Below are positions 1 to 17,497 of a stretch of DNA of 21,552 bases, one piece after another. Made by a program: the position numbers and the translations under genes. Source of the stretch: a virus (Duplodnaviria > Heunggongvirae > Uroviricota > Caudoviricetes). The number at the start of each line of letters is the position of its first letter. Within the stretch, counting starts at the first letter, position 1. Location of the stretch: the IMG/VR virus record IMGVR_UViG_2718218127_000003; one strand, 5' to 3'. A model generated the notes under the pieces. That model made no database searches and was not told the DNA's origin. It saw nothing but the letters and a program-made list of their open reading frames with translations.

Positions 1-186
1 ATGGCAGAAAGGTTCGTGAAAACGATGAAGGAAGACTACATCGCGTTCATGCCGAAACCGAATGTAAGAACGGCATTGCATAATCTTGCAGTGGCGATCG
101 AACATTACAATGAAAACCATCCGCACAGTGCGTTGGGTTATCGCTCTCCGCGAGAATATCGACGTCAGCGGGTAACGTTAACTTAA
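1..186 (+). CDS. IS3-family (IS2-group-like) transposase OrfB, C-terminal fragment; 5' end lies outside the window
   Basis: Translation ends ...[25 protein letters not shown], the typical C-terminus of an rve/DDE transposase of the IS3 family. The ORF is open at the window start. Confidence 0.75.
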
Positions 187-223
187 GATACACCCCCTGT
201 CTGGAAATAAGGGGGCAAGAACA
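1..223 (+). mobile_element. Right end of an IS2-like insertion sequence (partial)
   Basis: The transposase 3' end is followed by GTCTGGAAATAAGGGGGCAAGAACA, which resembles the IS2 terminal inverted repeat and ends in CA. The exact terminus is approximate. Confidence 0.55.
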
Positions 224-227
224 ATGA

Positions 228-971
228 TCAGATTCCCTGGTGAGTAAGAATTTTACTTTCTGAACTCCTCTGAGAGTATTGACTTGGAGAAACACCAAAA
301 TAACGTCTAAATACATAAGTAAAGTATGAGACACTGGCATAACCACAGACCTTAGCTACTTTACTAATAGGATAACAACGAGTGCAGAGTAAATATTCAG
401 CCATTTGCATCCTCTCATCAAGTATGATCTTACTGAATGATACCCCCTCTTCTTTCAATTTCCTCTTTAGTAAACTTTCGCTGAGATATAATCTTGATGA
501 TATATCCTTAAGACGCCATGGTGCAGATAAATCCGTATGAATAATCGTTTTAACTTTAGCCCCTGTGCTTTTCAAACATTCAAACAGAAATACTCCAAAT
601 TGTTTTTCAGAAGAAAATGCAGAGAGACATGTAAAAGCAATAGACTCATCAAAAATTTCTATGTATTCAGCACAGTGATTAGCCCAACTAATTAATCCTT
701 TAATTAAACTGAAGTCAGCAAAGTTTATTTTTAAATAAGATGGATATTCCCTACAATCAGAAATTTCCCTTAAGTTATTAGCTTTCAAATAGCGACTAAT
801 AAACTCAGCGCCAAAATCCGCCACTATCACTCTTTCAGGATATGTCAGGAAAAAATCTCTAGAGCTAGAGTCGACAAGTACAGATGAACCTCTCTCCAGA
901 AACACACTCTCTTTTCCGAAATAAACATCAAAGGACTCCAAAATCAATATAACTGAACATGTAGTTGCCAT
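228..971 (-). CDS. AraC/XylS-family transcriptional regulator, AppY/EnvY-like (247 aa from the ATG)
   Basis: The C-terminal HTH region (...WRLKDISSRLYLSESLLKRKLKEEGVSFSKIIL...CGYASVSYFTYVFRRYFGVSPSQY) is typical of small AraC regulators such as AppY, EnvY and YdeO. The ATG at 969-971 is preceded by GGTGGA. The gene is AT-rich. Confidence 0.8.
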   Translation of the reverse strand: MATTCSVILILESFDVYFGKESVFLERGSSVLVDSSSRDFFLTYPERVIVADFGAEFISRYLKANNLREISDCREYPSYLKINFADFSLIKGLISWANHCAEYIEIFDESIAFTCLSAFSSEKQFGVFLFECLKSTGAKVKTIIHTDLSAPWRLKDISSRLYLSESLLKRKLKEEGVSFSKIILDERMQMAEYLLCTRCYPISKVAKVCGYASVSYFTYVFRRYFGVSPSQYSQRSSESKILTHQGI

Positions 972-1555
972 ATCATCCACCCAACTTAACTGAAACCAGG
1001 ATGAAGTATATGCATATAAAGTTCACTTTGCCAAACTTCAGTATAAAAAACCACATAAAAAATAGGGTGTGATAAAAAATACCGTAACAATAAAGCAAAG
1101 GATTATAAATTCCGTTACAGTTACAAATGATACTCAAGAAACAATTCCTTAGGAAAAACTTATTTACAGCCAATAAGTAAGACACTTATATGATATCAAG
1201 TTTTCATAAAACATAACTAGGCTAAATAGCTGCGCCTAATACCGCTACACTTTTGCCAGCCCATGTTTGCCTCCGGGTATTGACCCCTTCTCTACGCAAC
1301 TTCAGTTCCTACCACCAACTTTGCGGCAGCTTTGTAGGATCAATGTCTAAAAGAATAATGGTGACCGATAAGAAAACGACTGAATAACTGCAAATTTTCG
1401 CTCAAAACCTTCCTGTCAGATCCATAGCGAATCAAGTGCTGAATGTCACAGTATCGAACAGAAAACAGTGACGATCTAACCCTTCAAGAATATTCTACGA
1501 TTGTTCTGTTTAGGAAAAGCAAGGCGGGAAGTCGGGAGATAAGTCATTGATAAAG

Positions 1556-1617
1556 TGGCGGAGAGAGGGGGATTTGAACCCCCGGTAGAGTTGCCCCTAC
1601 TCCGGTTTTCGAGACCG
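1556..1617 (-). tRNA. Partial tRNA-Ser(CGA): 3' 62 nt only, from the anticodon stem through CCA; att remnant rather than a functional tRNA
   Basis: The minus strand reads CGGTCTCGAAAACCGGAGTAGGGGCAACTCTACCGGGGGTTCAAATCCCCCTCTCTCCGCCA, which is the anticodon arm (CGA), long variable arm, T arm, acceptor 3' strand and CCA of a serine tRNA. No D arm or 5' acceptor strand is present upstream. Confidence 0.7.
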
Positions 1618-2350
1618 ATGATACAGAGTCGAAAAATCAAAGAGTTAAAAATTTTTCTTGGAATAAATGTCTTAAAATCGTACACGAAAAATCAATGAAT
1701 TACATAACATTAAAGAAGAATATTCCAAGCCTTCTTGAGGCTACTACCTGTTTTCAGGTGTCATTCAGACGTGATTTGCCCCAGATTGGGAAAGCACGCT
1801 TTTTTCTCAGCTATCGTCCTCTTATTTTGCCGTTACATTTCTTTTTGCACTCTAATGATTAATTTACAATAATAATATCGGTAATTATTGAGTAATAATA
1901 AATTGATTATTGCAAATGTAATTTAATTCCATCTTCGCGTTATATTCCAATCTTTAATCTCCGCATGGAACAAGTTGCATGCGTGACTATATTAAGACAA
2001 CTTATAACCACCAAAACATTTGCTTTGCAAACAAAAACAGTGACCATTGACTCTAAGAAAATTCCGATCTATTGTTAGGGTCATCAAAGTTACTTAACAG
2101 TATTCCGAAATGAAAATACAAAGCAAGCTAATTGTCTTATTAAACATTATCATTGCATTTATATTATTTGAGCTTTTAGCTCAAAAATTTGGTTTGAGTA
2201 CATTATTTTAAAGCAAGATAAACAATATCGGGCACTCTAGTTTTTATAATTAACAATTAAACGTCCATAAAATGTTATTTACTTTTGTTCGCTATTGTCA
2301 CATCTTAATATAGTGGCTTACGCCACTCTACTTTCATCACATTTTGTACG

Positions 2351-2385
2351 TTTATGTACTCGCCATGAAGCTCTTTCATGGCGAT
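2351..2385 (+). terminator. Intrinsic terminator-like hairpin in the AT-rich spacer
   Basis: CGCCATGAA-gctct-TTCATGGCG (9-bp stem) followed by ATTTTTATTCTT. Confidence 0.4.
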
Positions 2386-2475
2386 TTTTATTCTTAATCC
2401 AAGAACATACTCCCTACCTATAGCAAAATCACTTTTTGAACAAAAGAATAACGTATTTAGGTAATCATTACGAAT

Positions 2476-3057
2476 TTACCCTATAGGTGCTACTGGCCAT
2501 TCAATATCCGGAGCAGTTGTTGTATTAACACGGTTCAGCAACACCCGATACTTTTTCCAGGCTTCCAGCAACGAGTTTTCTTCCTCCGTTGCGATTTCCA
2601 GATCTACAGCATCCTGAAGTGGCGCAATATGCTCATTCGCTGCCTGCATCAGGCTGTTTTTTGTTTCTTCCGCCTCCCGGATCCGGAATAGTTTTTCTGC
2701 TTCTGCATCTTTCACCCAGGCTGTGCCGTTCCACTTCTGAAACTCCCCTTCCGGGGATAACCAAGTGGCATTTTCCGGTAACGGACCGAGTTCAGAAATA
2801 AATAACGCGTCGCCGGAAGCCACGTCATAAACCGTTTTACCCCGATGATCTTCAACGAGATGCCACGATGCCTCATCACTGTTGAAAACAGCCACGAAGC
2901 CTGCCGGAATATCTGGCGGTGCAATATCGGTACTGTTTGCTGGCAGACCTGTATGAGGCGGAATATATGCGTCACCTTCACCAATAAATTCATTAGTTCC
3001 GGCCAGCAGATTATAAATTTTTATGGTCCGTGGTTGTTCACTCATTCTGAATGCCAT
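2476..3057 (-). CDS. Phage tail fiber assembly protein (Tfa)
   Basis: The N-terminus [54 protein letters not shown] is characteristic of lambdoid Tfa chaperones. The ATG overlaps the stop of the upstream stf fragment (TAATG). Confidence 0.85.
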
Positions 3058-3297
3058 TATGCAAGCCTCACAATATAGTTAAATGCGATGTTTTTGACGG
3101 TGTTTTCCGCGTTACCAGCAGCGTTAACGGTGATGGTATGTCCATGTGAACCAATCGCAACGGAGTGCGTATGAGCACCAATACCGACAGTATGTGCGTG
3201 TGCACCTGCGCTTGCAGCAGTACCCGATACAGAGTGCGTATGAGCGCCTGCAGAAGAAGTGTTAACACTGTATTTAGAATAATCAGGTGATCCACTT
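3057..3297 (-). pseudogene. Side tail fiber (stf) gene, 3'-terminal remnant of about 80 codons
   Basis: My own translation of an alternative minus-strand frame gives ...[79 protein letters not shown], the (G)AHTHSV-repeat C-terminus of lambdoid side tail fibers. There is no start codon; it is fused upstream to the nu1 fragment. Confidence 0.7.
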
Positions 3298-3625
3298 CCA
3301 CCACTTCAGCGGAGTCTCTGGCATTCTTCAGTTCCTGTGCGTCGGCCTGCGCACGCGTAAGTCGATGGCGTTCGTACTCAATAGTCCCTGGCTGGAGATC
3401 TGCCTCGCTGGCCTGGCGCAGTTCTTCAACCTCCCGGCGCAGCTTTTCGTTCTCAATTTCAGCATCCCTTTCGGCATACCATTTTATAACGGCGGCAGAG
3501 TCATAAAGCACCTCATTACCCTTGCCACCGCCTCGCAGAACGGGCATTCCCTGTTCCTGCCAGTTCTGAATGGTACGGATACTCGCACCGAAAATGTCAG
3601 CCAGCTGCTTTTTGTTGACTTCCAT
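3296..3625 (-). pseudogene. nu1: Terminase small subunit Nu1, N-terminal 110 codons only
   Basis: [110 protein letters not shown] matches lambda Nu1 as I recall it. After codon 110 the frame runs into out-of-frame stf sequence (the listed 185-aa ORF is a chimera). Confidence 0.85.
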
Positions 3626-3850
3626 TGTTCATTCCACGGCCAAAAACAGAGAAAGGAAACGACAGAGGCCCAAAAGCTCGTTTTCAGCACCTGTCGTTTC
3701 CTTTCTTTTCAGGGGGTATTTTAAATAAAAACATTAAGTTACAACGAAGAAGAACGGAAATGCCTTAAACCGGAAAATTTTCATAAATAGCGAAAACCCG
3801 CGAGGTCGCCGCCCCGTAACAGCCCGGATCGCCGGAAAGGACCCGTAAAT
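3626..3850 (-). other. Lambda-type cos site (cosQ-cosN-cosB); 12-nt cohesive end at 3803-3814
   Basis: The reverse complement of 3721-3814 reads GGGCGGCGACCTCGCGGGTTTTCGCTATTTATGAAAATTTTCCGGTTTAAGGC..., which is the lambda left-end/cos sequence. The flanking CGGAAAGGACCCGT matches the lambda right end. It sits directly upstream of nu1. Confidence 0.85.
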
Positions 3851-3968
3851 GAGATGCTTTGTTGTTTTCTTGTTGGCTGTTCAACTACATGCAAGCATAT
3901 GGCATAATATTTAATTGATAATCTAATAGTTATAAAAACTTGCCCCAAAACCTTAACGGAGACTAAGA

Positions 3969-4661
3969 ATGTCCAGAGAAGGAACGTTAGATTTATTGCA
4001 AGAAGTTGAAGAAACCGTTGAAATATTAAAAGATACGCAACAAATAAAACCAGTAAAGGTTAAATCAATACTTGAAAATTTAAGAAGCGCATTAGAATAC
4101 GTTGCGAATGATAGTTATGAAAAACATACCACTAACCAATCAACCCCTCGGCCAAAAATTTATTTCCCATACGGCGAGAAAAAATTTTTAGATGCTTTCT
4201 TTATTAAAAAATTAAACTGCCAGCAACCTGAATTATCTCCATTATATGCAGTTTTTGTTTCAATCCAAGACTATCAAACTGGTAATAACTGGCTTGGAAT
4301 GATGTGTAACCTCACGAACGAAGTAAAACATAGGAAACCAATCCCATTGAGTGAAGATAGTATTGTTCGAGGAATAGATGTTAATATCAATGGGTTTGGA
4401 TTAATTAAGACAGATGCTACATCAAAAATCATTTTCAGAGATAATTTCACCAATGGACAGAGAATTGAAGACTTCACCATTGAAAATGGTAAAGTTGAAA
4501 AATCAGGGAACGGAATCCCCATCAATATTAACATAACCGAAGAGAAAAAAATAAGATTCCACGGTACAGATTATGAGGTCATTCCTTTTGTAGAGTTATG
4601 TCTAAAAGAAATAAGAGATTTTGTTAATGAAGCATATGAAATTTTAGATGCCATTGAATAA
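3969..4661 (+). CDS. Hypothetical protein, 230 aa, no recognisable domain; gene at the bor position between Rz and cos
   Basis: ATG at 3969 is preceded by GGAG with 7-nt spacing. The gene is AT-rich relative to its neighbours and lies on the strand opposite the late genes. The product is hydrophilic with no signal peptide. Confidence 0.7.
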   Translation: MSREGTLDLLQEVEETVEILKDTQQIKPVKVKSILENLRSALEYVANDSYEKHTTNQSTPRPKIYFPYGEKKFLDAFFIKKLNCQQPELSPLYAVFVSIQDYQTGNNWLGMMCNLTNEVKHRKPIPLSEDSIVRGIDVNINGFGLIKTDATSKIIFRDNFTNGQRIEDFTIENGKVEKSGNGIPININITEEKKIRFHGTDYEVIPFVELCLKEIRDFVNEAYEILDAIE

Positions 4662-4756
4662 TAATGATTAAGTAACATGGCAGGTAATCTATTTAAACCG
4701 GCCATGTTACAAATCATTGACGTAGAGAAAAAATGTAAAGTATATCCTTTATATAC

Positions 4757-5260
4757 TCAATTGTAATTTGATGTCCTCACCGACTCATAAACGCGCTCAC
4801 ACGTCATTCCAGCCCGGTAGCTTTCGTCAGATCGCTCAGCATAATATCGAGCTTCTTCTGTAAGGCGGCCGAGCATGTCGGCGAGCACTGCGGCGTCGGC
4901 TCCGGCTGTTTTGCTTCTGACGGCAGCGGCAAGATCTGCGGTGTGCTTTGCGGCGTCCAGGCGGGCGGCAAGCTTTGTTGCTTCGGTGCGCAGCTGGTTA
5001 ACAGTGGCAGACAGGCCAGCAGCAGTGGCAGCAGATTTAGCTGCTTGTGCTTGTGCATCTTTTACAGCCTCATCACGGGCAATTATGCGCCCTTGTTCAA
5101 TCATGCGGGCTGCGGTCTGCGCGTTCGCTGTTTGCGATGATTCCGCGCTGTCACGTTCCGCCCACTTTTTTTCCCAACCGCGGCTACACCATATATTTCC
5201 AGCGATAAACGCACTGGTCACTAGTACCGCGGCAACAATAAGCTGGGAGCACAGGCTCAC
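4757..5260 (-). CDS. Rz-like i-spanin (inner-membrane spanin)
   Basis: N-terminal TM helix [23 protein letters not shown] followed by an Ala/Gln-rich coiled coil. The GTG start overlaps the endolysin stop (GTGA). Confidence 0.7.
4804..5058 (-). CDS. Rz1-like o-spanin lipoprotein, embedded in the +1 frame of Rz
   Basis: [23 protein letters not shown] has a lipobox (LTSC) and is followed by a Pro-rich segment. The gene lies entirely inside Rz, as in lambda Rz/Rz1. Confidence 0.65.
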
Positions 5261-5790
5261 TGGTCTATCCCCCAGCAGGTTAATGCACTCTCCTGGTCAC
5301 GACGAATAACCTGACCGTAACAATTATTTGAACGAATACGGCAATCACGTCCACCGTCCTTTATCCACCAGCGAATCGCCTCGCATGCGCCTTTACGATC
5401 ACCGGCATTAAGCCGCTTATAAAACGTCGACGGAAAACACTTACCAGGGCCAATGTTATAGGGACAGAATGACGCGATACCGGCTTTCTGTGGCTCGGTC
5501 AGTGGAACTTTTATATTGCGCTCCACCCATGCCAGCGCCTTATCCCGCTCAATGGCGTTAACCTGGGCGCATTTTTCCTTCGACAGTTTCATTCCCGGAA
5601 TAACAGGTTTACCGTCCACCATCGTTGCTCCCCGACAGATGGTCCATACGCCGGAGCCATCGCGGTATGCAGTGGTGTGATTCCCCTCTTTTTCATCAAG
5701 AAACTGATCGAGAATGTCAGGTGCAGGAGCACTGGCGGCAATCAGTGCCAGAACAGCAGCCGACAGGCTGTATCTGATTTTTACGTTCAT
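5257..5790 (-). CDS. Phage endolysin (GH24 lysozyme) with an N-terminal signal-anchor (SAR-type), RrrQ-like
   Basis: [56 protein letters not shown]... matches lambdoid lysozymes of the Qin/21 type. Confidence 0.85.
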
Positions 5791-5924
5791 GGATATTTAT
5801 CAGGATTTATCGGTTTCTGAACCCTGGATATGTTAAGCATTCAGCCCGTCAGTGGTAGGACACTGGCGCTCTGGTTAAGGATTATGGGGGATGCAGGCTG
5901 GGCTACCCCATCTGAGGATTTGAT

Positions 5925-6164
5925 ATGCAAAAAGAAGTTTTTATCAATATTACAGCTGACTGCTCATCTCCTGCATCAACAGCAAAAGAAATTGAAGCTC
6001 TTAAATATATGATTACAGTAATATTTACCGTATTGGACCAGAATGAAAAAAATGGAATCATTCATCAATTAAATGAACATGTAAATAATCCATATATCAA
6101 AAGCAATCTGGAAATGTTGCTACCAATGAAAGATATTGGAAAACCAACTGAAACAAAAGGCTAA
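5925..6164 (+). CDS. Small hypothetical protein (79 aa) inserted in the lysis cassette on the opposite strand
   Basis: ATG at 5925 is preceded by GAGGA with 6-nt spacing. The gene is AT-rich and has no recognisable family. Confidence 0.45.
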   Translation: MQKEVFINITADCSSPASTAKEIEALKYMITVIFTVLDQNEKNGIIHQLNEHVNNPYIKSNLEMLLPMKDIGKPTETKG

Positions 6165-6475
6165 CAACCCGTAATCGAGTTATCTGAACTGTTAATTTTT
6201 ATGGTATACCGCGCCTCTGAACAGGGGCGCGTTTCTGGCAACAGCTCGTCCCCTTCACATAACCCGGCAGCAACATCCAGGAAGACCTGTCTGATGCTCC
6301 TTCTGGCTGCTGCCTCATAAAACTCCAGCGCGGCACCTTCAACACGGTCCAGCGAGATGTCCAGGTCAAAAATTTCACCGTCAAAGCGTTTTTTGTCCCG
6401 TAACGCTAAAGTTACCGTAACTTTATTCTCAAAATTGCGGATCCCTTTCACAATCAGTTCATAGTTTTGAGTCAT
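6161..6475 (-). CDS. YdfR-like protein (DUF1327 family) of the Qin-type lysis cassette
   Basis: MTQNYELIVKGIRNFENKVTVTLALRDKKRFDGEIFDLDISLDRVEGAALEFYEAAARRS... ATG at 6473-6475 with GGGGAGAG upstream. It sits between holin and endolysin, as ydfR does between essQ and rrrQ. Confidence 0.7.
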   Translation of the reverse strand: MTQNYELIVKGIRNFENKVTVTLALRDKKRFDGEIFDLDISLDRVEGAALEFYEAAARRSIRQVFLDVAAGLCEGDELLPETRPCSEARYTIKINSSDNSITGC

Positions 6476-6479
6476 TGAA

Positions 6480-6695
6480 TTACTCTCCCCGTGCAGCCTT
6501 GCGCTTATCTTCTTTAATCTTGAAATAAAGGTTTGTCAGGTACGTCAGCAGGCCAAATACCAAGCTACCCAGCACACCTATTGCTGCCCACTGTGAGGGC
6601 GTGACTTTATCGAGCAGCTGTAAAAACCAGTAGCCAGCACTGCCTGCGGAGGTGCCGTAGGCAATGCCCGTTGTTAACTTATCCATGGATTTCAT
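6480..6695 (-). CDS. Class II holin, phage 21 S (pinholin)-like, with a dual-start motif
   Basis: [71 protein letters not shown], 71 aa, with Met1 and Met4 (antiholin/holin starts). Strong SD GGAGGTG. Confidence 0.85.
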
Positions 6696-6786
6696 AGCCT
6701 CACCTCCGCAAATAACGGATGGTGTACACGGTTCGGAACGAAGAGGAAAGGTATAGAAGTTACATTAGCGTAAGGCTTGAACATCT

Positions 6787-6821
6787 ATTCAAAAAGAAAA
6801 ACGCCAGCGATTATTCTGGCG
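6787..6821 (-). terminator. Intrinsic terminator downstream of the AraC-like gene and upstream of the holin
   Basis: On the minus strand: CGCCAG-aataatcg-CTGGCG followed by TTTTTCTTTTTG. Confidence 0.55.
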
Positions 6822-6888
6822 TAGCTGAAAGCATCATACAATTATCAAATACGAAAATTACAAAATCATTAAAACGCATCACGTTACA

Positions 6889-7614
6889 TCATGTCTTTTC
6901 TAAAAAAAATCTTGATGAATATTGATGGGGAGGAACACCAAAATATCTTCTGAAAACACTTACAAAATATGACGTGTTTTCATAACCGCATATCTCAGTA
7001 ACTTTTCCAACAGAATATAAATTGTAGCTTAATAACCTTTCCGCCATCACCATTCGCTCTTCAAGAATTAACTTACTAAATGATAAGCCTTCGTGCTTTA
7101 ATTTTCCTTTTAACAGACTTTCACTCAGATACAGTCTTGAAGATATATCACAAAGTCTCCATGCTGCAGATATATCCGTGTGAATAATAGCCTTAACTTT
7201 ACTTCCTAAACTATTAAGACATCCAAATAAAAAACTTTGCACTATTTTCTCTGAAGATAAGATAGCAAGACATGCAAGTGATATTTGATTTCTAACAAAA
7301 TCCACAGTTCTGCCATCACAATTCAAGCATGCAATCAAGTTCTTTAACAATGAAAAATCTTCACATTCCACCATCAAGTATGCCGGATAAAACCTTCTTA
7401 CAGAAAAAGGTGAGAGTGTGTTGCTTTTAAAGAAATCATTAACTGTTTTCTCTTCAACATCTACGATCATTGCATGATCTATATTTGATGAAAAAAAATC
7501 TTTTAAATTGTAATCAATGAGAACAGCACTTCCTTTTTTAAATAAAATATCTTCTTTACCAATTCGGACATCAAACGAGTTCAACACCAAAATGATAGAA
7601 CATATGTATGGCAT
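6889..7614 (-). CDS. AraC/XylS-family transcriptional regulator, AppY/EnvY-like (241 aa from the ATG); paralog of 228..971
   Basis: ...WRLCDISSRLYLSESLLKGKLKHEGLSFSKLILEERMVMAERLL...CGYENTSYFVSVFRRYFGVPPHQYS. ATG at 7612-7614 is preceded by AGGTGG. The gene and its 350-bp upstream region are AT-rich. Confidence 0.8.
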   Translation of the reverse strand: MPYICSIILVLNSFDVRIGKEDILFKKGSAVLIDYNLKDFFSSNIDHAMIVDVEEKTVNDFFKSNTLSPFSVRRFYPAYLMVECEDFSLLKNLIACLNCDGRTVDFVRNQISLACLAILSSEKIVQSFLFGCLNSLGSKVKAIIHTDISAAWRLCDISSRLYLSESLLKGKLKHEGLSFSKLILEERMVMAERLLSYNLYSVGKVTEICGYENTSYFVSVFRRYFGVPPHQYSSRFFLEKT

Positions 7615-7965
7615 ATTATCCACCTGATATCATTGGGGTTACACCAGGTAAGTATAGGTGGAAAATCAATATTCGCCAGTTCAACAATAAGGAAAATCTC
7701 ATTGCATCACAAGTATAAAATTATGTATTTAACTCACAAAGACAAATTATTAAACCAATCTGTTATATTATATATAGCTGCGTGGAATCATAATATTATA
7801 TATTTTGACTGGCATGTTTACCAACTTTAAGTTGCATCTCAATGGTTTCTTCAGCGTAAACAGAGTTTTTATACAAACTGACACTCTGGGTATCATAGTG
7901 TAGTTTTTACGATTGTAAATATCCTGCATGCAGGAACTCATCCTTTTGGATGATATCGCATACAA

Positions 7966-8925
7966 TTAATTTACCATCAGTCTTAGAGCCAGTTCGTCCG
8001 GATAGGGATCGAAGTAATTCTGTGTAAGCAAGTAATCATTAGGATACTCACCCAGATAATGCTTCAGCAGAGTCAACGGCGCAAGAAGAGGTAATGTGCC
8101 AGAACGATAGTTAAGTATAACCTCGCTCAACTCTTTACGCTGGCGTGTACTTAAGTAGTTACTAAAATACCCCTGTATATGCATCAGCACATTCGTGTGA
8201 TTTTTACGTGATGCAGGTTTTCTGAGAATCGCCATCAGCTTATCACGATACACCTCAAAGTATGATTCAAGGTCCGCCCACTCGTGTATTGCAGCCACAA
8301 ATGGTCCCATATCTTTATAGCCTGCCTGACTATGCGCCAACAACTGAAGCTTATAACGACTATGAAAAGCTAATAACTCTCTTCTTGATAATTTCTCCTT
8401 GTAAAGGTGATTGAGCTCATGCAAAGCAAAAACTCTTTCAACAAAATTCTCACGAAGCACTGGATCATGTAATCGCCCATCCTCTTCAACCGGTAGCCAG
8501 GAAAACTTTTCCATCAAAGTGCTCGTAAATAGTCCCACTCCATCTTTACGACCTCGATTACCATTTTCATCATAGACACGCACGCGCTCCATGCCACAGC
8601 TGGGAGATTTAGCACAAACCACAAACCCCGATACATCCTTTAATTTGTCCATATAAGAACGACTAAACTCTGTCATTCTCTCTGTCACATCCTCATTCTG
8701 GTCGTGGCTGAAACACATCCGAATATTTCCTTGCGTCGAGCGCACAAGACGTAGAGCAGGACGCGGAACTGGCAGCCCTATAGCCATTTCCGGACATACT
8801 GGTCTGAATGTTACCCATTCCACTAATTTGTCCATTAAAAAGTCAGCTCTTTTGTGACCACCATCAAAACGAACAGCAGAACCGGCCAGACAACCGCTGA
8901 TTCCAATCACAGGTTTTTTTATCAT
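7966..8925 (-). CDS. YbgA-family protein: N-terminal DUF523 (TudS-like, Cys-rich) fused to C-terminal DUF1722
   Basis: MIKKPVIGISGCLAGSAVRFDGGHK...PVCPEM...VVCAKSPSCGME carries the conserved cysteines and SPSCG motif of the DUF523/thiouracil-desulfidase family, with a helical C-terminal half. Strong SD GGGGGAGG. Confidence 0.75.
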   Translation of the reverse strand: MIKKPVIGISGCLAGSAVRFDGGHKRADFLMDKLVEWVTFRPVCPEMAIGLPVPRPALRLVRSTQGNIRMCFSHDQNEDVTERMTEFSRSYMDKLKDVSGFVVCAKSPSCGMERVRVYDENGNRGRKDGVGLFTSTLMEKFSWLPVEEDGRLHDPVLRENFVERVFALHELNHLYKEKLSRRELLAFHSRYKLQLLAHSQAGYKDMGPFVAAIHEWADLESYFEVYRDKLMAILRKPASRKNHTNVLMHIQGYFSNYLSTRQRKELSEVILNYRSGTLPLLAPLTLLKHYLGEYPNDYLLTQNYFDPYPDELALRLMVN

Positions 8926-9117
8926 ATCCTCCCCCTTGACTAATTCATTAACACATAAACTGTGTAGTGCACGGAATAAATTGCCTTTCTGGCGTCATCA
9001 CTGACAATTTTTCTGTTATGGACTATTCCTAATATAGTATGAAAGTTCTTTAAGTGATCGGTCGTAATCATCTATCTTTCATACTTACTCTCAACTATCA
9101 AAAGTACAGGATTTATT

Positions 9118-9642
9118 ATGAAGTTATGGCCTGTGTTGACTGGCATTGCACTCTCTTTCACTCTTATAGCATGTAAGGCCCCGACACCACCTAAAGGTGT
9201 GCAGCCGATTACAAATTTTGACGCCAACCGCTACCTCGGAAAGTGGTATGAAATAGCTCGCCTCGAGAACCGGTTCGAACGTGGTCTGGAACAGGTCAGC
9301 GCTACTTATGGAAAACGGAACGACGGAGGGATTCGTGTACTTAACCGTGGATACGATCCAACGAAAAATAAATGGAGCGAGAGCGAAGGTAAAGCATACT
9401 TTACTGGAGATACTAAAACTGCAGCGTTGAAGGTTTCGTTTTTTGGCCCCTTCTATGGTGGCTATAATGTAATCAAACTGGATGATGAGTATAAGTATGC
9501 TCTTGTCAGTGGTCCGAACAGAGAATACCTATGGATTCTGGCAAGGACCCCAACTATTCCAGATAAAGTAAAAGCAGACTATGTGCGAACCGCTCAAAAG
9601 TTGGGATTCAATGTCAATGAATTATTATGGGTTAAACAATAA
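9118..9642 (+). CDS. blc: Outer-membrane lipocalin lipoprotein, Blc family (paralog-like, prophage-borne)
   Basis: Lipoprotein signal MKLWPVLTGIALSFTLIAC, then ...NFDANRYLGKWYEIARLENRFERGLEQV...GKAYFTG...LKVSFFGPFYGGYNVI...YLWILARTP..., the bacterial lipocalin signature. Confidence 0.85.
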   Translation: MKLWPVLTGIALSFTLIACKAPTPPKGVQPITNFDANRYLGKWYEIARLENRFERGLEQVSATYGKRNDGGIRVLNRGYDPTKNKWSESEGKAYFTGDTKTAALKVSFFGPFYGGYNVIKLDDEYKYALVSGPNREYLWILARTPTIPDKVKADYVRTAQKLGFNVNELLWVKQ

Positions 9643-9667
9643 AATCCCTACCCGAAATAATACTTAT

Positions 9668-9697
9668 TAGAAAAAAACCAGCCTTTGGGGAGGCTGG
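9668..9697 (-). terminator. tR'-like intrinsic terminator about 100 nt downstream of Q
   Basis: On the minus strand: CCAGCCT-ccccaa-AGGCTGG followed by TTTTTTTCT. The position matches the lambda pR'-tR' unit on which Q acts. Confidence 0.55.
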
Positions 9698-9797
9698 CTA
9701 AATCAGGAAACAAGCTGTTATATGATAATAACTACGTTGCGATTCCAACATTTAAAATGTTAGACTAATGAGAATCAGACAGCAACTTTTCCTTTAA

Positions 9798-10175
9798 TTA
9801 TTTCGAACAATCAGCATCCATCTCCAATCGGAGATCCAACACCATCAGCATACCCTCCACTACGCCCTCAGCTTTCTGGAGCATCCTGCCAACCCAACAA
9901 TCAGATCGCCCATGCTTACGTGCAAGCGCCATAAAAGTCATGCCGCCGACATAATAGTCCACCAATAAATCGTGCAAATCGCTGTTGTTCTTTTTCAGAC
10001 GGGCCATGCACCCGCAAATGATCATCGCGTCATCGTCACAACATTGCGGGCGAGATTTTACTTTTGAAGGAATTAATCCCTTAAAACCGGCGGCAATGGA
10101 CGACCAGGTCACATCTTCATGATTATTAGCCGCCCATGCTCCCCAACGCTCCAGAACCATCTGAATATCACGCAT
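9798..10175 (-). CDS. Late-gene antitermination protein Q (phage 82/21 type, QuuD-like)
   Basis: [76 protein letters not shown]... The ATG at 10173-10175 is preceded by GGAG; the TTG 4 codons upstream used by the ORF track is less likely. Confidence 0.85.
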
Positions 10176-10192
10176 CAACTTTCTCCACAAAA

Positions 10193-11188
10193 TCAGGCCA
10201 GCACACCAATCGCCAGCGCACGATCGATAAAACGAAATATCAGCTCCAGCTGGGAGCCATACTTCTCTTCAAATGCCACGGTATCCGCATGCAGCTCGTC
10301 GTGATGCTTTCTGCACAAAGGCAACACAAAAAGGTCATGCGCTTTTGTACCCATTCCACCCTGACCGTGGCCTATCAGGTGATGGGGATCATCGGCGGGC
10401 TTTCCACAACATGCACACGGCTGCGTCTTAACCCAGCGCGTGTACTTTTCATTAACCCAGCGGCGACGTTTTGGGCGTAACATAAAAGACTCCGGCGACT
10501 CCGGCTCCACTTTCAGCGCCAGCACCTTTTTCGCTTTATCCTGGATGATGCTGGTGGCAGGAACCGAAGGAACAAGATCACTTTCCCGGGTGACAGACGG
10601 CACAACAGGCTTCGGTAATCTCAGTGCCTTACGGGCTGCACTTTCCGGTAAGGCATCCGCCAGGTCATTACGAACCAGCCACCAGCACAGTTCCGGCATT
10701 GTCACAACGTGACTGTCATCAAAACCGAGATCCCGACGCACGACAGACAACACCCAGCGGGCACAGTTATCCGTTGCCATTGATTCCAGCCGTTCCGTGA
10801 ACTGATCGCGCAGCTGGTTATCGCAGTGCCAGCACAGACGGATTGCGCCCGGAGCGTGTCGCATTGTGGTCATGTTCTCGCTGTGCCAGTCGGAATGAGG
10901 CCACTGGCAGCCTTTTTCACGAAGTAACCAGCTTTCAAGACATTCCACGCCACCAGCACGACGGATCACCGCCTCATTGCGGAACACAGACCGAACGGCA
11001 GGATCATCCGCCAGTGGTTGTAATGCCGCCGGAACGGCACCACTGGAAAAAGATGAATAATGTTCCGGCTCAGGCTCCAGCAGGACACGCCCCTGCATAA
11101 ACAGGGGCATCAGCTCTGAACCGGGTCTGAACAATACGATCCCCATACGCGGGGCAACTTCAGGGGTCAGTAGTGCTCTCACGGTCAC
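10193..11188 (-). CDS. DUF968-family prophage protein (YdfU-like) with a C-terminal HNH-like Cys/His motif
   Basis: C-terminus ...[47 protein letters not shown]. It lies immediately upstream of Q, as ydfU does in Qin. The start is GTG and uncertain. Confidence 0.7.
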
Positions 11189-11189
11189 C

Positions 11190-11763
11190 TCAATGAACGG
11201 TATCGAGCAGCTTTAACAGCTCAGGGAATCGGGATTCGAAGAAATGCGGCTGCGTCTCGCGCGGATTTGCGGGACTGGTGATATTCTTGCCGAACATGCA
11301 GCCTTTCGCTGTCAGCGACCAGAATTTTTTGATGTTGTTAATCGCGGTACGGCTGTATCGTTCGCGCTGCTCGACGATCCCCAGCTTCACCATCTGGTGA
11401 TATGCCTGATTAGCTGTCAGGCGGATACCATACTGCTTCAGCAGTGCACTCAGTGACAGCGTGGGGCGGCTTGAGCCATCAGGCGCGTCAGCAGGAGCAT
11501 CAATGGCATAGCGCGGTGCCAGATTCGGTACCCTGGCGACGCGCCTTACGCGTTAACCAGCCTTCTGCTTCCAGCCGTGCGATAGCCGTCCTGACGGTAC
11601 TCATCCCCGCGCCAATCTGACGGGCAATAGTTTCAATTGATGGCCAGCACACACCTTCGTCATTACTGAAATCAGCCAGGCGGGCCATAATTGCCACGCT
11701 GGATAATTTCATGCCTGATGCAGCGCAACCATCCCATACATAGCCGGTTAATTTAGTGCTCAT
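11190..11763 (-). pseudogene. Helix-turn-helix phage protein (replication/regulatory-like), apparently frameshifted near 11500-11520
   Basis: The 87-aa ORF (MSTKLTGYVWDGC...RLEAEGWLTRKARRQG) stops at 11500, and protein-like sequence continues in another frame (RYAIDAPADAPDGSSRPTLSLSALLKQYGIRLTANQAYHQMVKLGIVEQ...) into the 67-aa ORF ending at 11190. Confidence 0.5.
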
Positions 11764-12111
11764 GACCGACCTCTATTTCCCTGAATTTACGACGAAACTG
11801 TTCGAGCGGGCTGAAGCACTCATGCTCATAGCCTTCGCGGAGGTAGATAACTCGTTGTGTTTCCGGCTCCCAACGAATGACTCTGACGGGCACTCCGTAG
11901 TGATCTTTGAACCAGCGGTTAACTTGTCGCAAAGGACTGTCTCCTTCTGCCGGTTGAAATCACCCACAGCCCACTCAGCAAAGCTGTGGGTTACAATTTC
12001 CCTGTCACCTGGTACATTAACTGCATAGCAATACTCCACCTTCGCTTTTCCACCCGGTACAGGAAGCGCAATCAGTTGCGAGCGACGGTAGTGTGTTGTT
12101 AAACTGTTCAT
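11753..12111 (-). pseudogene. Hypothetical phage early protein, frameshifted near 11940-11975
   Basis: The N-terminal frame ([50 protein letters not shown]) then degrades, while another frame gives protein-like ...[62 protein letters not shown], whose stop overlaps the next ATG. Confidence 0.5.
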
Positions 12112-12671
12112 GCGTTAGTTTCTCCACAGTCACGACACGCCACGGCGCCCGGAGCTGCACACTCGCGGGCGTCATTACTTTCTGAAATGCAAAAGATTTT
12201 GTAGACCAGTGCTGCATGCTCCTGCAGCTTCGAAATTGAGAGATACAGCTCGTCGTTAATTGCTGTCTTCTCATGCGGTTCCACTACACCGTCTTCGATT
12301 GCTGAACGAATCTGTTTTGAATAACTGCCGATCTGTTCAATGACTTCCAGCAGACGCTGGTTAATATCGGCGTTGTCCACATCCTCGACGTCAGGAAGAG
12401 ACACAAAGACGCCATTTGCAGACTGCGCCACAGCGTCAGCAATGAAGTGAGTTCCACCAGCACGTTGCAAAATCATTGCCCATCCCAGCGGGAAAATCTG
12501 ATCGCCATCGGCACGAAGGCGGTTAAATAATGCGTTCTCTGTTACATCCAGCCAGTCAGCCGCTTCAGCGTAACCACCCGGCAACGCCGCGATAGTTTTT
12601 CTGACAGCTTTCACGTACCACTCAGGCTGTTTTTCTATTTTCCAGTGATGCTTACCCACGATTAGCCTCAT
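12108..12671 (-). CDS. Phage regulatory protein, CII-like / YdaT-like, downstream of cro
   Basis: 187 aa with ATG at 12669-12671. Its stop overlaps the next gene start (ATGA). It is second in the pR-side operon after cro, as ydaT/cII are. Confidence 0.6.
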
Positions 12672-12702
12672 CGTTCTGTGGTTAAAAATTGAAAGTGTTC
12701 TG

Positions 12703-12903
12703 CTAATCTTTCGGATAGATATCCGGTCTTAAGTCAGATTTCGTAATTGCACCTGACGTGCATTGCTCAAGTTTTTTAGCCAGCACAAAACTGGCTTTTT
12801 TATAGCCATTGAAAACCAGCCGTAAGTAGCCAGGTGTTGAGCCAACTTTTCCGGCCAACTCGCCCTGCTGTTCTTTGGTTAAAGAGTCCCAATACGCTTT
12901 CAT
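12703..12903 (-). CDS. Cro-like HTH regulator (YdaS family), 66 aa
   Basis: MKAYWDSLTKEQQGELAGKVGSTPGYLRLVFNGYKKASFVLAKKLEQCTSGAITKSDLRPDIYPKD. ATG at 12901-12903 with SD GGAGGT. Divergent from the cI-like gene. Confidence 0.8.
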   Translation of the reverse strand: MKAYWDSLTKEQQGELAGKVGSTPGYLRLVFNGYKKASFVLAKKLEQCTSGAITKSDLRPDIYPKD

Positions 12904-12906
12904 ACA

Positions 12907-12978
12907 ATATGTACCTCCGGTGTACATATTACATGATTGAAATGAACCTTCAAGATACTTGTACCTTAACGGTACAAG
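12907..12978. promoter_or_regulatory. Immunity operator/promoter region (oR-like) with two palindromes between cro and cI
   Basis: ATATGTAC-ctccggt-GTACATAT (12907-12929) and CTTGTACC-ttaac-GGTACAAG (12958-12978) share the half-site (A/T)TGTACC. Confidence 0.5.
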
Positions 12979-12993
12979 GGTTTTAATTTCGTT

Positions 12994-13668
12994 ATGAAAA
13001 CAATCCATGACATCCGGCGGTCTAACGCCAGAAAACTGAGAGATGGTGTTGGCGGGAATTCTTCCTTTGCCACTATGATTGATCGCGAGCCAACCCAGAC
13101 CAGCAGGTTTATGGGAGATGGTGCTACTAAAAATATCGGTGACAGCATGGCACGACACATCGAAAAATGTTTCGACCTGCCTGTCGGATGGCTCGATCAA
13201 GAACACCAGACAACGAACATCACAAAAAAACCTGATGTTTCAATCACTAATAAACAAATCACATTAGTCCCTGTCATATCATGGGTACAGGCCGGAGCAT
13301 GGAAAGAAGTTGGATATTCTGAGGTTGATTTGAGCACAGCAGAAACGTATCCCTGCCCTGTACCCTGTGGGGAAATGACTTATATCTTGCGGGTGATAGG
13401 TGATTCAATGATTGATGAGTACCGCCCGGGAGACATGATTTTTGTCGATCCTGAAGTACCTGCCTGCCACGGTGACGACGTTATTGCATTGATGCACGAT
13501 ACAGGTGAAACCACCTTCAAAAGGTTGATAGAAGATGGGACACAGCGTTATCTCAAAGCGTTAAACCCAAACTGGCCTGAGCCTTACATTAAGATCAACG
13601 GTAATTGCTCTATAATTGGAACTGTGATTTTCTCAGGAAAACCAAGAAGATACAAAATCAAAGCCTAA
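12994..13668 (+). CDS. cI-like prophage repressor: N-terminal HTH, C-terminal S24 (LexA-like) autopeptidase
   Basis: The C-terminal domain has an AG cleavage site (VQAG/AW), the GDSM serine motif and a downstream Lys (TFKRL). The ATG has almost no SD, consistent with a leaderless pRM-type transcript. Confidence 0.85.
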   Translation: MKTIHDIRRSNARKLRDGVGGNSSFATMIDREPTQTSRFMGDGATKNIGDSMARHIEKCFDLPVGWLDQEHQTTNITKKPDVSITNKQITLVPVISWVQAGAWKEVGYSEVDLSTAETYPCPVPCGEMTYILRVIGDSMIDEYRPGDMIFVDPEVPACHGDDVIALMHDTGETTFKRLIEDGTQRYLKALNPNWPEPYIKINGNCSIIGTVIFSGKPRRYKIKA

Positions 13669-13688
13669 TCAATGTTTATGAACCTGCT

Positions 13689-13712
13689 TCGGCAGGTTTT
13701 TTTATACTTGAC
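13689..13712 (+). terminator. Intrinsic terminator after the cI-like gene
   Basis: AACCTGC-ttcg-GCAGGTT followed by TTTTTTT. Confidence 0.6.
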
Positions 13713-13715
13713 AAT

Positions 13716-13749
13716 GTACCTTTGAGATACATAATGTACCCAAGAGAAA
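13716..13749 (+). promoter_or_regulatory. pL-like promoter overlapped by an operator palindrome
   Basis: TTGACA-N16-CATAAT. The spacer contains ATGTACC-tttga-GATACAT (13722-13740), the same half-site and 5-bp spacing as the oR palindromes, plus a further ATGTACC at 13742-13748. Confidence 0.5.
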
Positions 13750-13816
13750 CAACAAACAGGCAGGACGCCCACGAAGTATCCGCCTGGGGCATATGAAGTC
13801 CAGGATGATTCGTTAG

Positions 13817-13846
13817 CAACAAAAAAGCGCCCTACAGGACGCTTAG
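13817..13846 (-). terminator. Intrinsic terminator downstream of the 173-aa gene
   Basis: On the minus strand: AAGCG-tcctgtaggg-CGCTT followed by TTTTGTTG. Confidence 0.45.
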
Positions 13847-13885
13847 CTCTTTAACAATCTGGGTATCATCCAACCAATGCAAGAT

Positions 13886-14407
13886 TTAAGGAATCCAAGG
13901 CGAATTCAGATCTCGCCCCAACTCACGTAATGATCTTGGTCGTTCGTACATCGGATTTTTTTCCATAAGAAATTTATTTTCACAGTGAAGGCAACGGCTT
14001 GTAAGAAAATGAGAAGTTTTACCTACTGGAAGCGGATGAAGTATCGATTTTATATTTTTGGAATAACAAAGTGGGCACAGATGCACAGTTATTTCTTTTC
14101 CACTCACAATTTCATTTTTAGAGTAAACAAAAGCACCAGAGTCAAGCTGATCAAGGACATATCCTTCTACCTTGGCACAAAAATCTTCAAACTCTGCAAT
14201 TTTTGCTTTGAGATGCATCACCTCTTCATCACGAAGGCGGATCGCATCGCCAAGAGAGAAGCATTCTGCCTGAAGCGTGATTAGTTTGTTCTGGAGTTCA
14301 ATGGTTGCAGCTTTAACTTCTGCATCCGTTTTCGCGTCATTAATAACCTTAGCAAGACCGGCAGTCTCCTTTATAGCGGCCATAGCCGCAGACAGTTCAG
14401 CTATCAC
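13886..14407 (-). CDS. Hypothetical protein, 173 aa: N-terminal coiled coil and C-terminal CxxC-X22-CxxC zinc-ribbon-like motif
   Basis: ...HLCPLCYSKNIKSILHPLPVGKTSHFLTSRCLHCENKF. The gene is AT-rich, convergent with cI, and has its own terminator. The start is uncertain (GTG at 14405-14407 or the ATG 8 codons in). Confidence 0.55.
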   Translation of the reverse strand: MIAELSAAMAAIKETAGLAKVINDAKTDAEVKAATIELQNKLITLQAECFSLGDAIRLRDEEVMHLKAKIAEFEDFCAKVEGYVLDQLDSGAFVYSKNEIVSGKEITVHLCPLCYSKNIKSILHPLPVGKTSHFLTSRCLHCENKFLMEKNPMYERPRSLRELGRDLNSPWIP

Positions 14408-14876
14408 GTTGAATACTCAGCTAGTTGTTGGGGATATCCAGATTAACCAAATCCTTGTTGTTGGGGAATAACTAGGTCCACCTCGCCTGATGTGGCTAAA
14501 AGCAGGCACATAACAGCTAAGTATTTTCAACCAGAGAGAATCCTTAGCGTTGTGGTGAATGCGGCTCAGCGCACGCGGGTTAAGGTTGAGGCTGACAGTC
14601 GACCTTCTGTGGATACCCACCCGCCTGGTGTGCAACCTTCGCCAGGCACCGGGAGGCACCCGGCACCACAACTTTATGCTGTGTGTAGTCCTGGCGGTAT
14701 CAGCTTGTACCCTTGCTTCCGGCTGGTACCGTCCTTTTTACAAAACAGAGAAGAGCATCACCGGACGACGGGCTCATAACCCAATCCATCCGGGCGGCTG
14801 CCACCGCAGGTGTTCTTCTCTGTTTTGTGGAGAAACCAACCGACCCTGCAGGGTCGATATGATGGGGAGCAGCAAA

Positions 14877-15239
14877 ATGGCTAGCGAACGCAGTACTGAT
14901 GTGCAGGCATTTATCGGGGAGCTGGACGGCGGCGTATTTGAAACCAAAATCGGCGCAGTTCTCAGTGAAGTCGCTTCCGGTGTGATGAACACGAAAACCA
15001 AAGGTAAGGTCTCGCTCAACCTGGAAATCGAACCGTTTGATGAGAACCGTGTAAAAATCAAACACAAACTCTCATATGTTCGCCCGACTAACCGCGGGAA
15101 AATTTCCGAAGAAGACACCACCGAAACGCCGATGTATGTCAATCGCGGTGGTCGCCTGACTATTCTGCAGGAAGACCAGGGACAATTACTGACTCTTGCC
15201 GGTGAACCTGACGGAAAACTCCGCGCAGCAGGTCGTTAA
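14877..15239 (+). CDS. YfdP-like prophage protein (120 aa)
   Basis: MASERSTDVQAFIGELDGGVFETKIGAVLSEV... ATG at 14877 is preceded by GGGGAG with 7-nt spacing. The upstream in-frame extension is GC-rich and low-complexity and is rejected. Confidence 0.7.
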   Translation: MASERSTDVQAFIGELDGGVFETKIGAVLSEVASGVMNTKTKGKVSLNLEIEPFDENRVKIKHKLSYVRPTNRGKISEEDTTETPMYVNRGGRLTILQEDQGQLLTLAGEPDGKLRAAGR

Positions 15240-15304
15240 TATCGTTTTTAATAAACTGATTATTTATCTCATCACTGAATATCTTTATATAGTGAGGACT
15301 TATT

Positions 15305-16129
15305 ATGTCTCAGAACTTAGACGCAACCGCAATTAATCAAATCCATGCCCTTATTTCTGCTCAGGGTGTTAATGAAATTATCAGTAAGATTGGTGCCGAT
15401 GCTGTGGCATTGCCTGAGAATTTCCGCATTCATGATCTGGAAAAATTTAATTTAAATCGCTTCCGTTTCCGTGGTGCGCTTTCCACTGCCAGCATCGATG
15501 ACTTTACCCGTTATTCTAAAGATCTTGCAGATGAAGGCACCCGCTGCTTTATCGATGCTGATAATATGCGAGCCGTCAGTATGCTTAACCTGGGTACTAT
15601 TGATGAACCAGGTCACGCAGATAACACCGCCACTCTCAAACTGAAAAAGACAGCACCGTTCTCTGCCCTGTTGTCTGTTAACGGCGAGCGTAACTCCCAG
15701 AAGTCACTGGCAGAATGGATTGAAGACTGGGCCGACTACCTTGTGGGCTTTGATGCTAATGGTGACGCCATTCAGGCAACAAAAGCGGCTGCGGCGGTCC
15801 GTAAAATCACGATTGAAGCAAACCAGACCGCTGATTTTGAAGACAATGACTTCAGCGGCAAACGCTCTCTGATGGAGTCTGTCGAAGCGAAAACCAAAGA
15901 CATTATGCCAGTAGCATTTGAGTTTAAATGCGTTCCGTTTGAAGGCCTGAAAGAACGTCCGTTTAAATTACGCCTCAGCATTATCACTGGTGATCGCCCT
16001 GTACTGGTTCTGCGCATTATTCAGCTGGAAGCAGTGCAGGAAGAAATGGCTAACGAATTTCGTGATCTGCTTGTTGAAAAATTCAAAGACAGCAAAGTAG
16101 AAACCTTTATTGGTACTTTCACCGCCTGA
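15305..16129 (+). CDS. YfdQ-like prophage protein (DUF2303 family), 274 aa
   Basis: Good SD (TGAGGA). The size and position match yfdQ in the CPS-53-type early-left module. Confidence 0.75.
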
Positions 16130-16141
16130 TTTCATTACTGC

Positions 16142-16166
16142 AAATGCCCCTGCGGGGGCATTTATG
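16142..16166 (+). terminator. Strong stem-loop between the yfdQ-like and yfdR-like genes (possible attenuator or partial terminator)
   Basis: AAATGCCCC-tgcg-GGGGCATTT, a 9-bp GC-rich stem, followed by AT-rich sequence but no clean U-run. Confidence 0.3.
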
Positions 16167-16256
16167 GAAACGTAATTAACTCAATAATCGCCTGATGGCG
16201 AGGGTTTTCTTTAACCAAAATTCAGCGCGGTGCAGCGCATATACGTGGAGAACAAA

Positions 16257-16793
16257 ATGTCATTTATTAAAACTTTTTCCGGGAAGCATTTTTATTATGA
16301 CAGGATAAATAAAGACGACATCGATATTAACGATATCGCGGTTTCCCTTTCAAATATCTGTCGCTTTGCCGGTCATCTTTCGCACTTCTACAGCGTCGCC
16401 CAACATGCGGTTCTTTGCAGCCAGCTGGTGCCGCAGGAATTTGCTTTTGAAGCGTTAATGCATGATGCAACAGAAGCGTATTGCCAGGACATTCCCGCAC
16501 CACTGAAACGCCTTCTTCCTGACTATAAACAAATGGAAGAAAAAATAGACGCCGTAATCCGTGAGAAATACGGGTTACCCCCAGTTATGAGTACGCCCGT
16601 GAAATATGCCGATCTCATCATGCTGGCAACCGAACGCCGCGATCTCGGGCTTGATGATGGCTCTTTCTGGCCTGTACTGGAAGGTATCCCGGCAACAGAG
16701 ATGTTCAACGTGATTCCACTGGCACCGGGCCATGCCTACGGGATGTTTATGGAACGCTTTAACGAGTTATCGGAGTTACGCAAATGCGCATGA
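16257..16793 (+). CDS. HD-domain phosphohydrolase, YfdR-like (5'-deoxynucleotidase family), 178 aa
   Basis: ...FAGHLSHFYSVAQHAVLCSQL...ALMHDATEAYCQDIPAPLK... is an HD motif. ATG at 16257 with GGAG upstream; the GTG at 16230 used by the ORF track is less likely. Confidence 0.8.
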   Translation: MSFIKTFSGKHFYYDRINKDDIDINDIAVSLSNICRFAGHLSHFYSVAQHAVLCSQLVPQEFAFEALMHDATEAYCQDIPAPLKRLLPDYKQMEEKIDAVIREKYGLPPVMSTPVKYADLIMLATERRDLGLDDGSFWPVLEGIPATEMFNVIPLAPGHAYGMFMERFNELSELRKCA

Positions 16794-17475: not shown

Positions 17476-17497
17476 GATGGCTTAAAGAGAGGTGCCC

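Follow-up and report, generated by a model that had tools for sequence, protein, structure and literature searches.

The DNA analysed here, called the window throughout and 21,552 nucleotides long, is part of an Escherichia coli chromosome. Strain MB06022 matches positions 1..16738 at 100% identity, and there the counterpart region adjoins paoABCD and a yagP remnant. One strongly decayed lambdoid prophage was found in the window. From the right-hand side leftwards, its genes begin with an immunity region (ymfK, ymfT, ymfL), followed by a DUF968 gene, the antiterminator gene Q, a lipocalin gene in reverse orientation, a YbgA-like gene and the gene of an AraC-type regulator, here called B. After B come essD, ydfR, a lysozyme gene, an Rz-like gene, a fusion of terminase and tail-fibre fragments, tfa, a 1.5-kb AT-rich stretch, a second AraC-type regulator gene, here called A, and a scrap of an IS3-family element (Table 1). 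The head and tail genes are missing, and insertions of IS1, IS3 and IS30 are numerous. The original prediction had placed B between Q and the holin gene and A just beyond a tRNA-Ser attachment remnant, and had likened the position of A to that of appY at the tail-fibre end of DLP12 in K-12. All three placements were borne out, the remnant lying between A and the tail-fibre assembly gene and A lying downstream of tfa just as appY does.

Table 1. Features of the window around the two AraC-type regulator genes
Positions	Strand	Feature	Remark
1..186	+	IS3-family transposase 3' fragment (integrase core), beside patE	RefSeq: integrase core domain protein lacking its N-terminus
228..971	-	Regulator A, patE orthologue; AraC/XylS family, YdeO/GadW-like subfamily	247 aa
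972..1222	-	Native patE upstream region, about 250 bp, AT-rich	Contiguous with patE in Sakai, ev099 and the window
1223..1277	.	IS630-family fragment, 55 bp	93% identical to an element end on plasmid pJNE23-001_1
1278..1555	.	Chromosomal DNA from downstream of serU (yodB-serU intergenic), 278 bp	BLAST to K-12
1556..1617	-	tRNA-Ser(CGA) serU 3' part, nt 29-90, ends in CCA	Exact match to K-12 serU
1618..2475	.	AT-rich phage arm, attR to tail-fibre assembly gene	98% identical to the attR-proximal arm of the GPEC1040 serU prophage and to ev099
2476..3057	-	tfa, tail fibre assembly; last structural gene of the remnant	RefSeq; 94% identical to DLP12 tfaD
6480..6695	-	Holin gene essD, first of the lysis genes	RefSeq
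6801..6822	-	Intrinsic-terminator-like hairpin and T run, between B and holin	
6889..7614	-	Regulator B, uncharacterised PatE paralogue, in the Q-to-holin cargo slot	241 aa
7966..8925	-	YbgA-like gene, 2-thiouracil desulfurase and DUF1722 domains; cargo cassette	Annotation, domain matches
9118..9642	+	Cassette gene of the lipocalin family; antisense to late transcription	Annotation
9676..9699	-	Terminator-like hairpin, about 100 nt downstream of Q	
9798..10175	-	Q-family antiterminator	RefSeq; Pfam Phage_antitermQ in homologous loci

At 2495..3844 a piece of the small terminase gene runs directly into a tail-fibre fragment, with tfa coming next. This joint together with tfa is 94-96% identical to the nohD-aaaD-tfaD joint of K-12 DLP12, and since the deletion joint is common to both elements, the two remnants either go back to one ancestor that already had the deletion or have exchanged DNA by recombination. 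A 230-aa open reading frame of 32% GC (3969..4661, plus strand) separates the packaging fragment from the Rz-like gene; it is a full-length member of PHROG 13652 (unknown function) for which no match was obtained in Pfam or PADLOC, and in MB06022 it is broken by IS1. The right end of the window (17492..21552) consists of IS debris, at which the early region of the prophage is cut off, and includes an IS30 copy (17811..18962) nested in an IS3-family element (17492..17854 and 19056..19868). A 415-aa open reading frame at 19965..21212 on the minus strand gave no match in Pfam, PHROG or PADLOC, and the DNA around it has IS1B alongside in other genomes.

Both regulator genes are intact open reading frames on the minus strand, and RefSeq gives the same ends for them in the identical MB06022 DNA. 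They share the ribosome-binding context GGTGGAT(G/A)ATATG, the Shine-Dalgarno-like GGTGGA lying 4 nt before the ATG of A (971) and likewise ahead of the ATG of B (7614). The AT-richness noted earlier for genes and upstream regions was confirmed: the GC content was 35% for A and 32% for B, and 37% and 32% for their respective upstream regions, against 45% for the whole window.

The two proteins were identical at 121 of 235 residues in an ungapped BLASTP alignment (51%, E 9e-84), in good agreement with the earlier estimate by eye that about half the residues are shared. Conservation is unevenly distributed, with 69% identity in the C-terminal DNA-binding half against 38.5% in the N-terminal half; the C-terminal HTH region had been described as near-identical, and it is well conserved rather than that. 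Each protein carries the C-terminal domain of about 100 residues with two HTH motifs that marks the AraC/XylS family. The Pfam gathering cut-offs were passed by both proteins for HTH_18 (A 57.7 bits, B 47.7 bits, cut-off 33.6) and for HTH_AraC (A 60.8 bits, B 34.0 bits, cut-off 26.6). The original prediction was to fall if the pairwise identity was below about 25% or if an AraC-type HTH domain was absent; the identity is about twice that limit and the domain is present in both. Full-length matches were also obtained to PHROG 1450, a family with its function listed as unknown (E 1.1e-95 for A and 2.1e-104 for B; residues 1-239 covered). These comparisons support the view that A and B are true paralogues of one AraC subfamily.

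Among the NCBIfam models, YdeO was the best for both proteins and matched over their full length, with scores (A 148.4 bits, B 122.9 bits) well below the cut-off of 348 for the YdeO equivalog NF007407. The GadX equivalog NF007432 was matched by the C-terminal part only, again below its cut-off (111.9 bits and 81.7 bits against 500). Of the K-12 proteins, A was most similar to YdeO (35% identity), then to GadW (33%) and AppY (28%), and B to GadW (33%), then to AppY and YdeO (31% each). A neighbour-joining tree united the groups of PatE and of B with an intermediate group (P0055) in one clade; next outwards came the regulator of O-island 57 (OI-57) of O157:H7 strain EDL933, followed by GadW, AppY and YdeO and after them by GadX. 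The recognition-helix motifs S-ESL-K-KL and SYF--F were kept across the whole group in the alignment, including YdeO, GadW and GadX, which gave the best K-12 matches. These three are chromosomal, whereas A and B are phage-borne and stand outside the EvgA/SafA context. At the level of sequence, the two proteins are best explained as members of a branch of AraC/XylS activators that is carried by prophages and belongs to the group of YdeO, GadW and AppY.

The label 'AppY-like' given to the pair in the original prediction therefore holds for the subfamily and no further, AppY being 28-31% identical to the two proteins, YdeO and GadW 31-35%, and the O157:H7 regulator PatE 99% identical to A. We also considered whether A and B could be orthologues of AppY that duplicate the function of the DLP12 gene. 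Such an origin would fit the place of A downstream of tfa at a prophage end, the neighbouring tfa and terminase-fragment DNA that is 94-96% identical to DLP12, and the N-terminal MxxxCSV motif that AppY has in common with the pair. It is opposed by an identity to AppY (28% for A, 31% for B) that does not exceed the identity to YdeO and GadW, and by the tree, in which AppY groups with GadW outside the PatE/B clade, so that we regard it as hardly credible. With YdeO (for A) and GadW (for B) as the closest K-12 proteins, orthology to AppY was rejected at the sequence level. AppY, a prophage-end AraC regulator with an AT-rich gene, is a positional analogue of A, and no link from A or B to its hya, app or RpoS-stability roles emerged from these comparisons.

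The AlphaFold model of B was confident for the DNA-binding domain only. This predicted domain superposed on the GadX domain 3mkl with a target TM-score of 0.91 and an rmsd of 1.5 A, making the GadX DNA-binding domain the best structural match to the modelled C-terminal half of B. For the full-length model the best matches were CsvR, Rns and ToxT (E about 1e-9 to 1e-10), which have the two-domain architecture predicted for B and sequence matches to it that reach beyond the HTH region, although the identity is only 14-20%. The N-terminal domain was modelled with a mean pLDDT of 67, residues 82-133 falling below 50, and because of this low confidence no ligand or fatty-acid pocket is claimed for B.

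A is PatE (Z0321 / ECs0287). It is identical at 244 of 247 residues (99%) to ECs_0287 of O157:H7 strain Sakai, a protein of the same length, and ECs_0287 is in turn identical to the product of the sole AraC gene of EDL933 prophage CP-933H. The surrounding DNA agrees, positions 1..1618 of the window being 99.1% identical to Sakai prophage Sp1, with the IS3 scrap on one side of the gene and the serU fragment on the other as in CP-933H/Sp1. The identification was made because of the near-identity to the CP-933H/Sp1 AraC gene combined with the same flanks. B, which is 52% identical to O157 PatE over 235 residues with the same domain layout, falls outside PatE and is a separate paralogue in another slot of the phage genome. 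The O157:H7 gene sits in Sp1, whereas A lies in a different, DLP12-like remnant beside paoABCD. The window copy of patE is bracketed by IS remnants, the IS630 scrap at 1223..1277 and the IS3 scrap at 1..186, and the latter is also found next to patE in Sakai (as a partial ISEc48) and in phages ev099 and PhiR70_1.

PatE has been described in O157:H7. A review gives it as z0321, an AraC-like activator of gadB, gadC, gadE and hdeAB that works through hdeA promoter positions -132 to -45 and lowers the expression of several LEE genes (PMC10877973). Z0321 was listed as a putative regulator of prophage CP-933H in O-island 8, with 6-fold RpoS dependence (PMC2907692), and ECs0287 was reported to be up at the stationary-phase transition (PMC2241611). 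PatE is also reported in the O157:H7 literature to raise acid survival, its expression being RpoS-dependent. The identity of A as PatE removes novelty for A: A is an already characterised regulator, and B is an uncharacterised paralogue of the same kind.

The window copy of patE differs from that of O157 by three substitutions (D68E, G131E and S196C), corresponding to three non-synonymous and no synonymous changes, and from that of ev099 by five non-synonymous and no synonymous changes. G131E replaces a glycine common to four of eight aligned relatives (B, P0055, the OI-57 regulator and O157 PatE); the residue differs in GadW, AppY, YdeO and GadX. Because only non-synonymous changes were found, G131E among them, this copy could be impaired and may have decayed in function within the cryptic element.

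The tRNA-Ser remnant was located by reading the sequence and by BLAST. It corresponds exactly to nt 29-90 of K-12 serU, a segment that reaches from within the anticodon loop as far as the final CCA. No tRNA was reported by ARAGORN over the window, because only a fragment is present, and the only Rfam match at the gathering threshold was IS009, which falls inside tfa. On the 3' side of the fragment, towards patE, lies host DNA that ends at the IS630 scrap, itself placed precisely at the junction between host DNA and the patE upstream region. Host DNA and serU fragment together (1278..1617) are 97% identical over 340 bp to K-12 2043190..2043529, and a match to this DNA was found at the serU locus of 5,422 of the 5,426 complete E. 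coli genomes. GPEC1040 has the native order yodB - host DNA - serU fragment - AT-rich spacer - tfa - stfR - lom - J. As the exact 3' part of serU adjoins DNA normally found downstream of serU, in the arrangement that is native in GPEC1040, the fragment is the fossil attR core left by a lambdoid phage that integrated at serU, and the adjoining host DNA has stayed with it. The homology of Sakai Sp1 with the window ends exactly at this fragment, at position 1618.

The spacer that separates tfa from the serU fragment also contains a strong intrinsic-terminator-like hairpin (2360..2384, plus strand; 11-bp stem and T run). It overlaps a weak, non-significant MicC-like Rfam match (2271..2397, plus strand; E 3.4) and may mark a small transcript.

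Positions 1..3248, comprising the fossil attR and patE, match the packaged ev099 phage genome at 98.3% identity, where the block lies between tfa and int-xis, and the same attR-patE block occurs in phages PhiR70_1 and mEp332. Because the block travels inside viable phages, patE is phage cargo and not a flanking host gene. The original prediction had put A beyond the attachment remnant and outside the prophage; it does lie beyond the fossil attR, but as cargo of the same defective prophage, and the notion of a host gene outside the prophage was rejected on the strength of the packaged genomes. The simplest history would be that an ancestral serU-integrating phage took up the DNA beside its attachment site, namely the attR fossil, 278 bp of host DNA, the IS630 scrap, patE and the IS3 scrap. 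An aberrant, IS-assisted excision would have captured this DNA, after which patE would have become ordinary phage cargo in the position that appY holds in DLP12. A literature search on serU-linked cargo capture returned nothing specific. The fossil attR next to patE offers a clean textbook example of cargo gain from beside an attachment site.

B carries only the RefSeq name 'helix-turn-helix domain-containing protein'. At every locus examined it belongs to a cassette made up of Q, the lipocalin gene on the reverse strand, a YbgA/DUF1722 gene, the AraC gene and the holin gene. This order was found in four independent contigs and in phage IdasGreatGrand, the corresponding protein of which is 98% identical to B, and copies about 82% identical to B were found in about a dozen Lambda_ev and related phages. 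A literature search on the Q-lipocalin-YbgA-AraC cassette yielded nothing specific.

Among the 5,426 complete E. coli genomes, patE was present in 657, with at least 99% identity in 601 records, and B in 1,033 (about 19%, or one in five), with alleles 80-100% identical. The two genes occurred in one element in only two of these genomes, MB06022 and NCTC11023. Viable phages carrying A were ev099, mEp332 and PhiR70_1, and none of the sequenced phages in the collection searched carried both A and B. The two nearest strains differ in where the prophage is truncated, that of NCTC11023 being cut by IS1 at another point than that of MB06022; in NCTC11023, B is also split by IS1 (17211..18714 of its locus).

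These observations bear on whether A and B are inert relics of a decaying prophage, intact by chance and making no contribution in the strain. An IS-riddled element that lacks head and tail genes and is truncated differently in its two nearest strains, an IS1 disruption of B in one of them, and a patE copy that has diverged from that of O157 by non-synonymous changes only, including G131E, are what such relics would look like. However, both frames are intact with good ribosome-binding sites, and the prevalence and conservation of patE and the frequency of B given above speak against chance survival. Among B alleles the dN/dS ratio was about 0.26-0.28, and a value near 0.27 indicates purifying selection on B. 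Moreover, patE is reported to be expressed and functional in O157:H7 from an equally decayed prophage. We therefore consider it very unlikely that both genes are inert.

Some features of the pair would fit morons, independent cargo units with a promoter and a terminator of their own, a deviant base composition and a presence that varies between otherwise similar phages. The GC content of 32-35% deviates from that of the window, a terminator-like hairpin follows B, and presence varies among phages and genomes. Promoter-like sites were found upstream of patE (one, at 1034..1005, with a 10/12 match) and in the upstream region of B (7615..7965, minus strand, 32% GC) at 7919..7892 and 7824..7795. 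Such sites were no more numerous upstream of A and B than in a shuffled control, and as they occur at chance frequency no promoter is claimed for either gene. Silencing of A and B by H-NS, suggested by the base composition and the precedent of appY, is plausible; AppY is reported to be controlled by H-NS and RpoS.

B lies on the same strand as Q and the holin gene. In a lysogen, its expression would depend on its own 350-bp AT-rich upstream region, and after induction Q-modified RNA polymerase from pR' would read through ybgA and B. This read-through is proposed because on the late strand B follows Q and precedes the holin gene, with one hairpin downstream of Q and another after B; by analogy, the former would occupy the position of lambda tR'. 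Late transcription would also run head-on through the lipocalin gene, since that gene is antisense to the Q-dependent transcript.

Our preferred reading, to which we give a probability of about 0.72, is that a single defective lambdoid prophage carries A and B as cargo ('moron') regulators, A being PatE and B an activator of an overlapping set of genes that likely serve acid fitness. PatE in O157:H7 is described as being induced at entry into stationary phase and as switching on gadE, gadBC and hdeAB through a cis-element of hdeA. B would bind AT-rich promoters through the same two recognition helices as its relatives, and it would activate a gene set overlapping that of PatE, most likely the acid fitness island. 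We infer acid-fitness-island promoters as its targets by analogy, because the relatives of B act on AT-rich promoters of this kind and B shares their recognition-helix motifs. PatE, PsrB and AppY are reported to act on gadE and hdeA, AppY by activating gadE directly; GadW, GadX and YdeO are named in the literature as regulators of gadE; and one segment of the hdeA promoter is reported to serve both PatE and the distant PsrB (PMC10877973). The convergence of A and B on one host regulon, which had been put forward as a possibility for the pair, is on these analogies plausible. The signals and partners of B may differ from those of PatE, because the N-terminal halves are only 38.5% identical.

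AraC-family regulators commonly act on neighbouring genes, and B could instead be a local regulator of its own cassette (the ybgA-like and lipocalin genes) or of late and lysis functions of the phage, with no host regulon. This commonness and the occurrence of B with ybgA and a divergent lipocalin gene at all loci examined lend it some weight. The characterised relatives YdeO, GadW, GadX, AppY, PatE and PsrB, however, act on distant promoters of the acid fitness island, the recognition-helix motifs of B are conserved with these host-acting proteins, and PatE, its closest relative, has no ybgA or lipocalin neighbours. A purely local role for B is therefore judged unlikely.

A more elaborate form of the preferred reading, in which B acts on the host, would make B a dual-mode regulator. 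It would be silent or weak in the lysogen and strongly expressed through Q after induction, like stx in the same slot, and would then rewire the acid-stress/GadE network. GadX/GadW heterodimers are known, and mixed B-PatE dimers might be formed. We hold this scheme to be speculative and quite unlikely; if it were true, a dual-mode B together with PatE in the rare double carriers would constitute a prophage-internal two-regulator switch.

Related systems in O157:H7 are PsrA and PsrB, the prophage-encoded secretion regulators, likewise AraC-like, which according to the literature raise GadE, leading to acid resistance and LEE repression; the Psr family is marked by an indirect repression of type III secretion by way of GadE and YhiF. 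In OI-57 of EDL933, a 237-aa regulator has a Q-like gene on one side and a tRNA, nanS and holin genes on the other, and a PerC/Pch gene is close by. It resembles B in its place between a Q-like gene and lysis genes and is 37-39% identical to A and B. This protein is probably PsrB, an assignment made by position alone. Reviews place PsrA (z1789) in OI-50/CP-933N. No psrA-like gene was found in EDL933 1626000..1670000 or in Sakai Sp6, either in the RefSeq annotation or by tblastn with A or B; the reviews may be mistaken about the locus tag or the island, or psrA may have another location.

Prophage AraC regulators that feed the GadE circuit (AppY, PatE, PsrA/B) are an established route by which phages alter the stress tolerance and virulence of E. 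coli. B extends this family of prophage-borne regulators to a very common cargo gene that has had no earlier study and that occupies a high-expression slot also used by the Shiga toxin genes. This makes it a sensible though modest candidate for studying how acid resistance is altered by lysogeny or by prophage induction.
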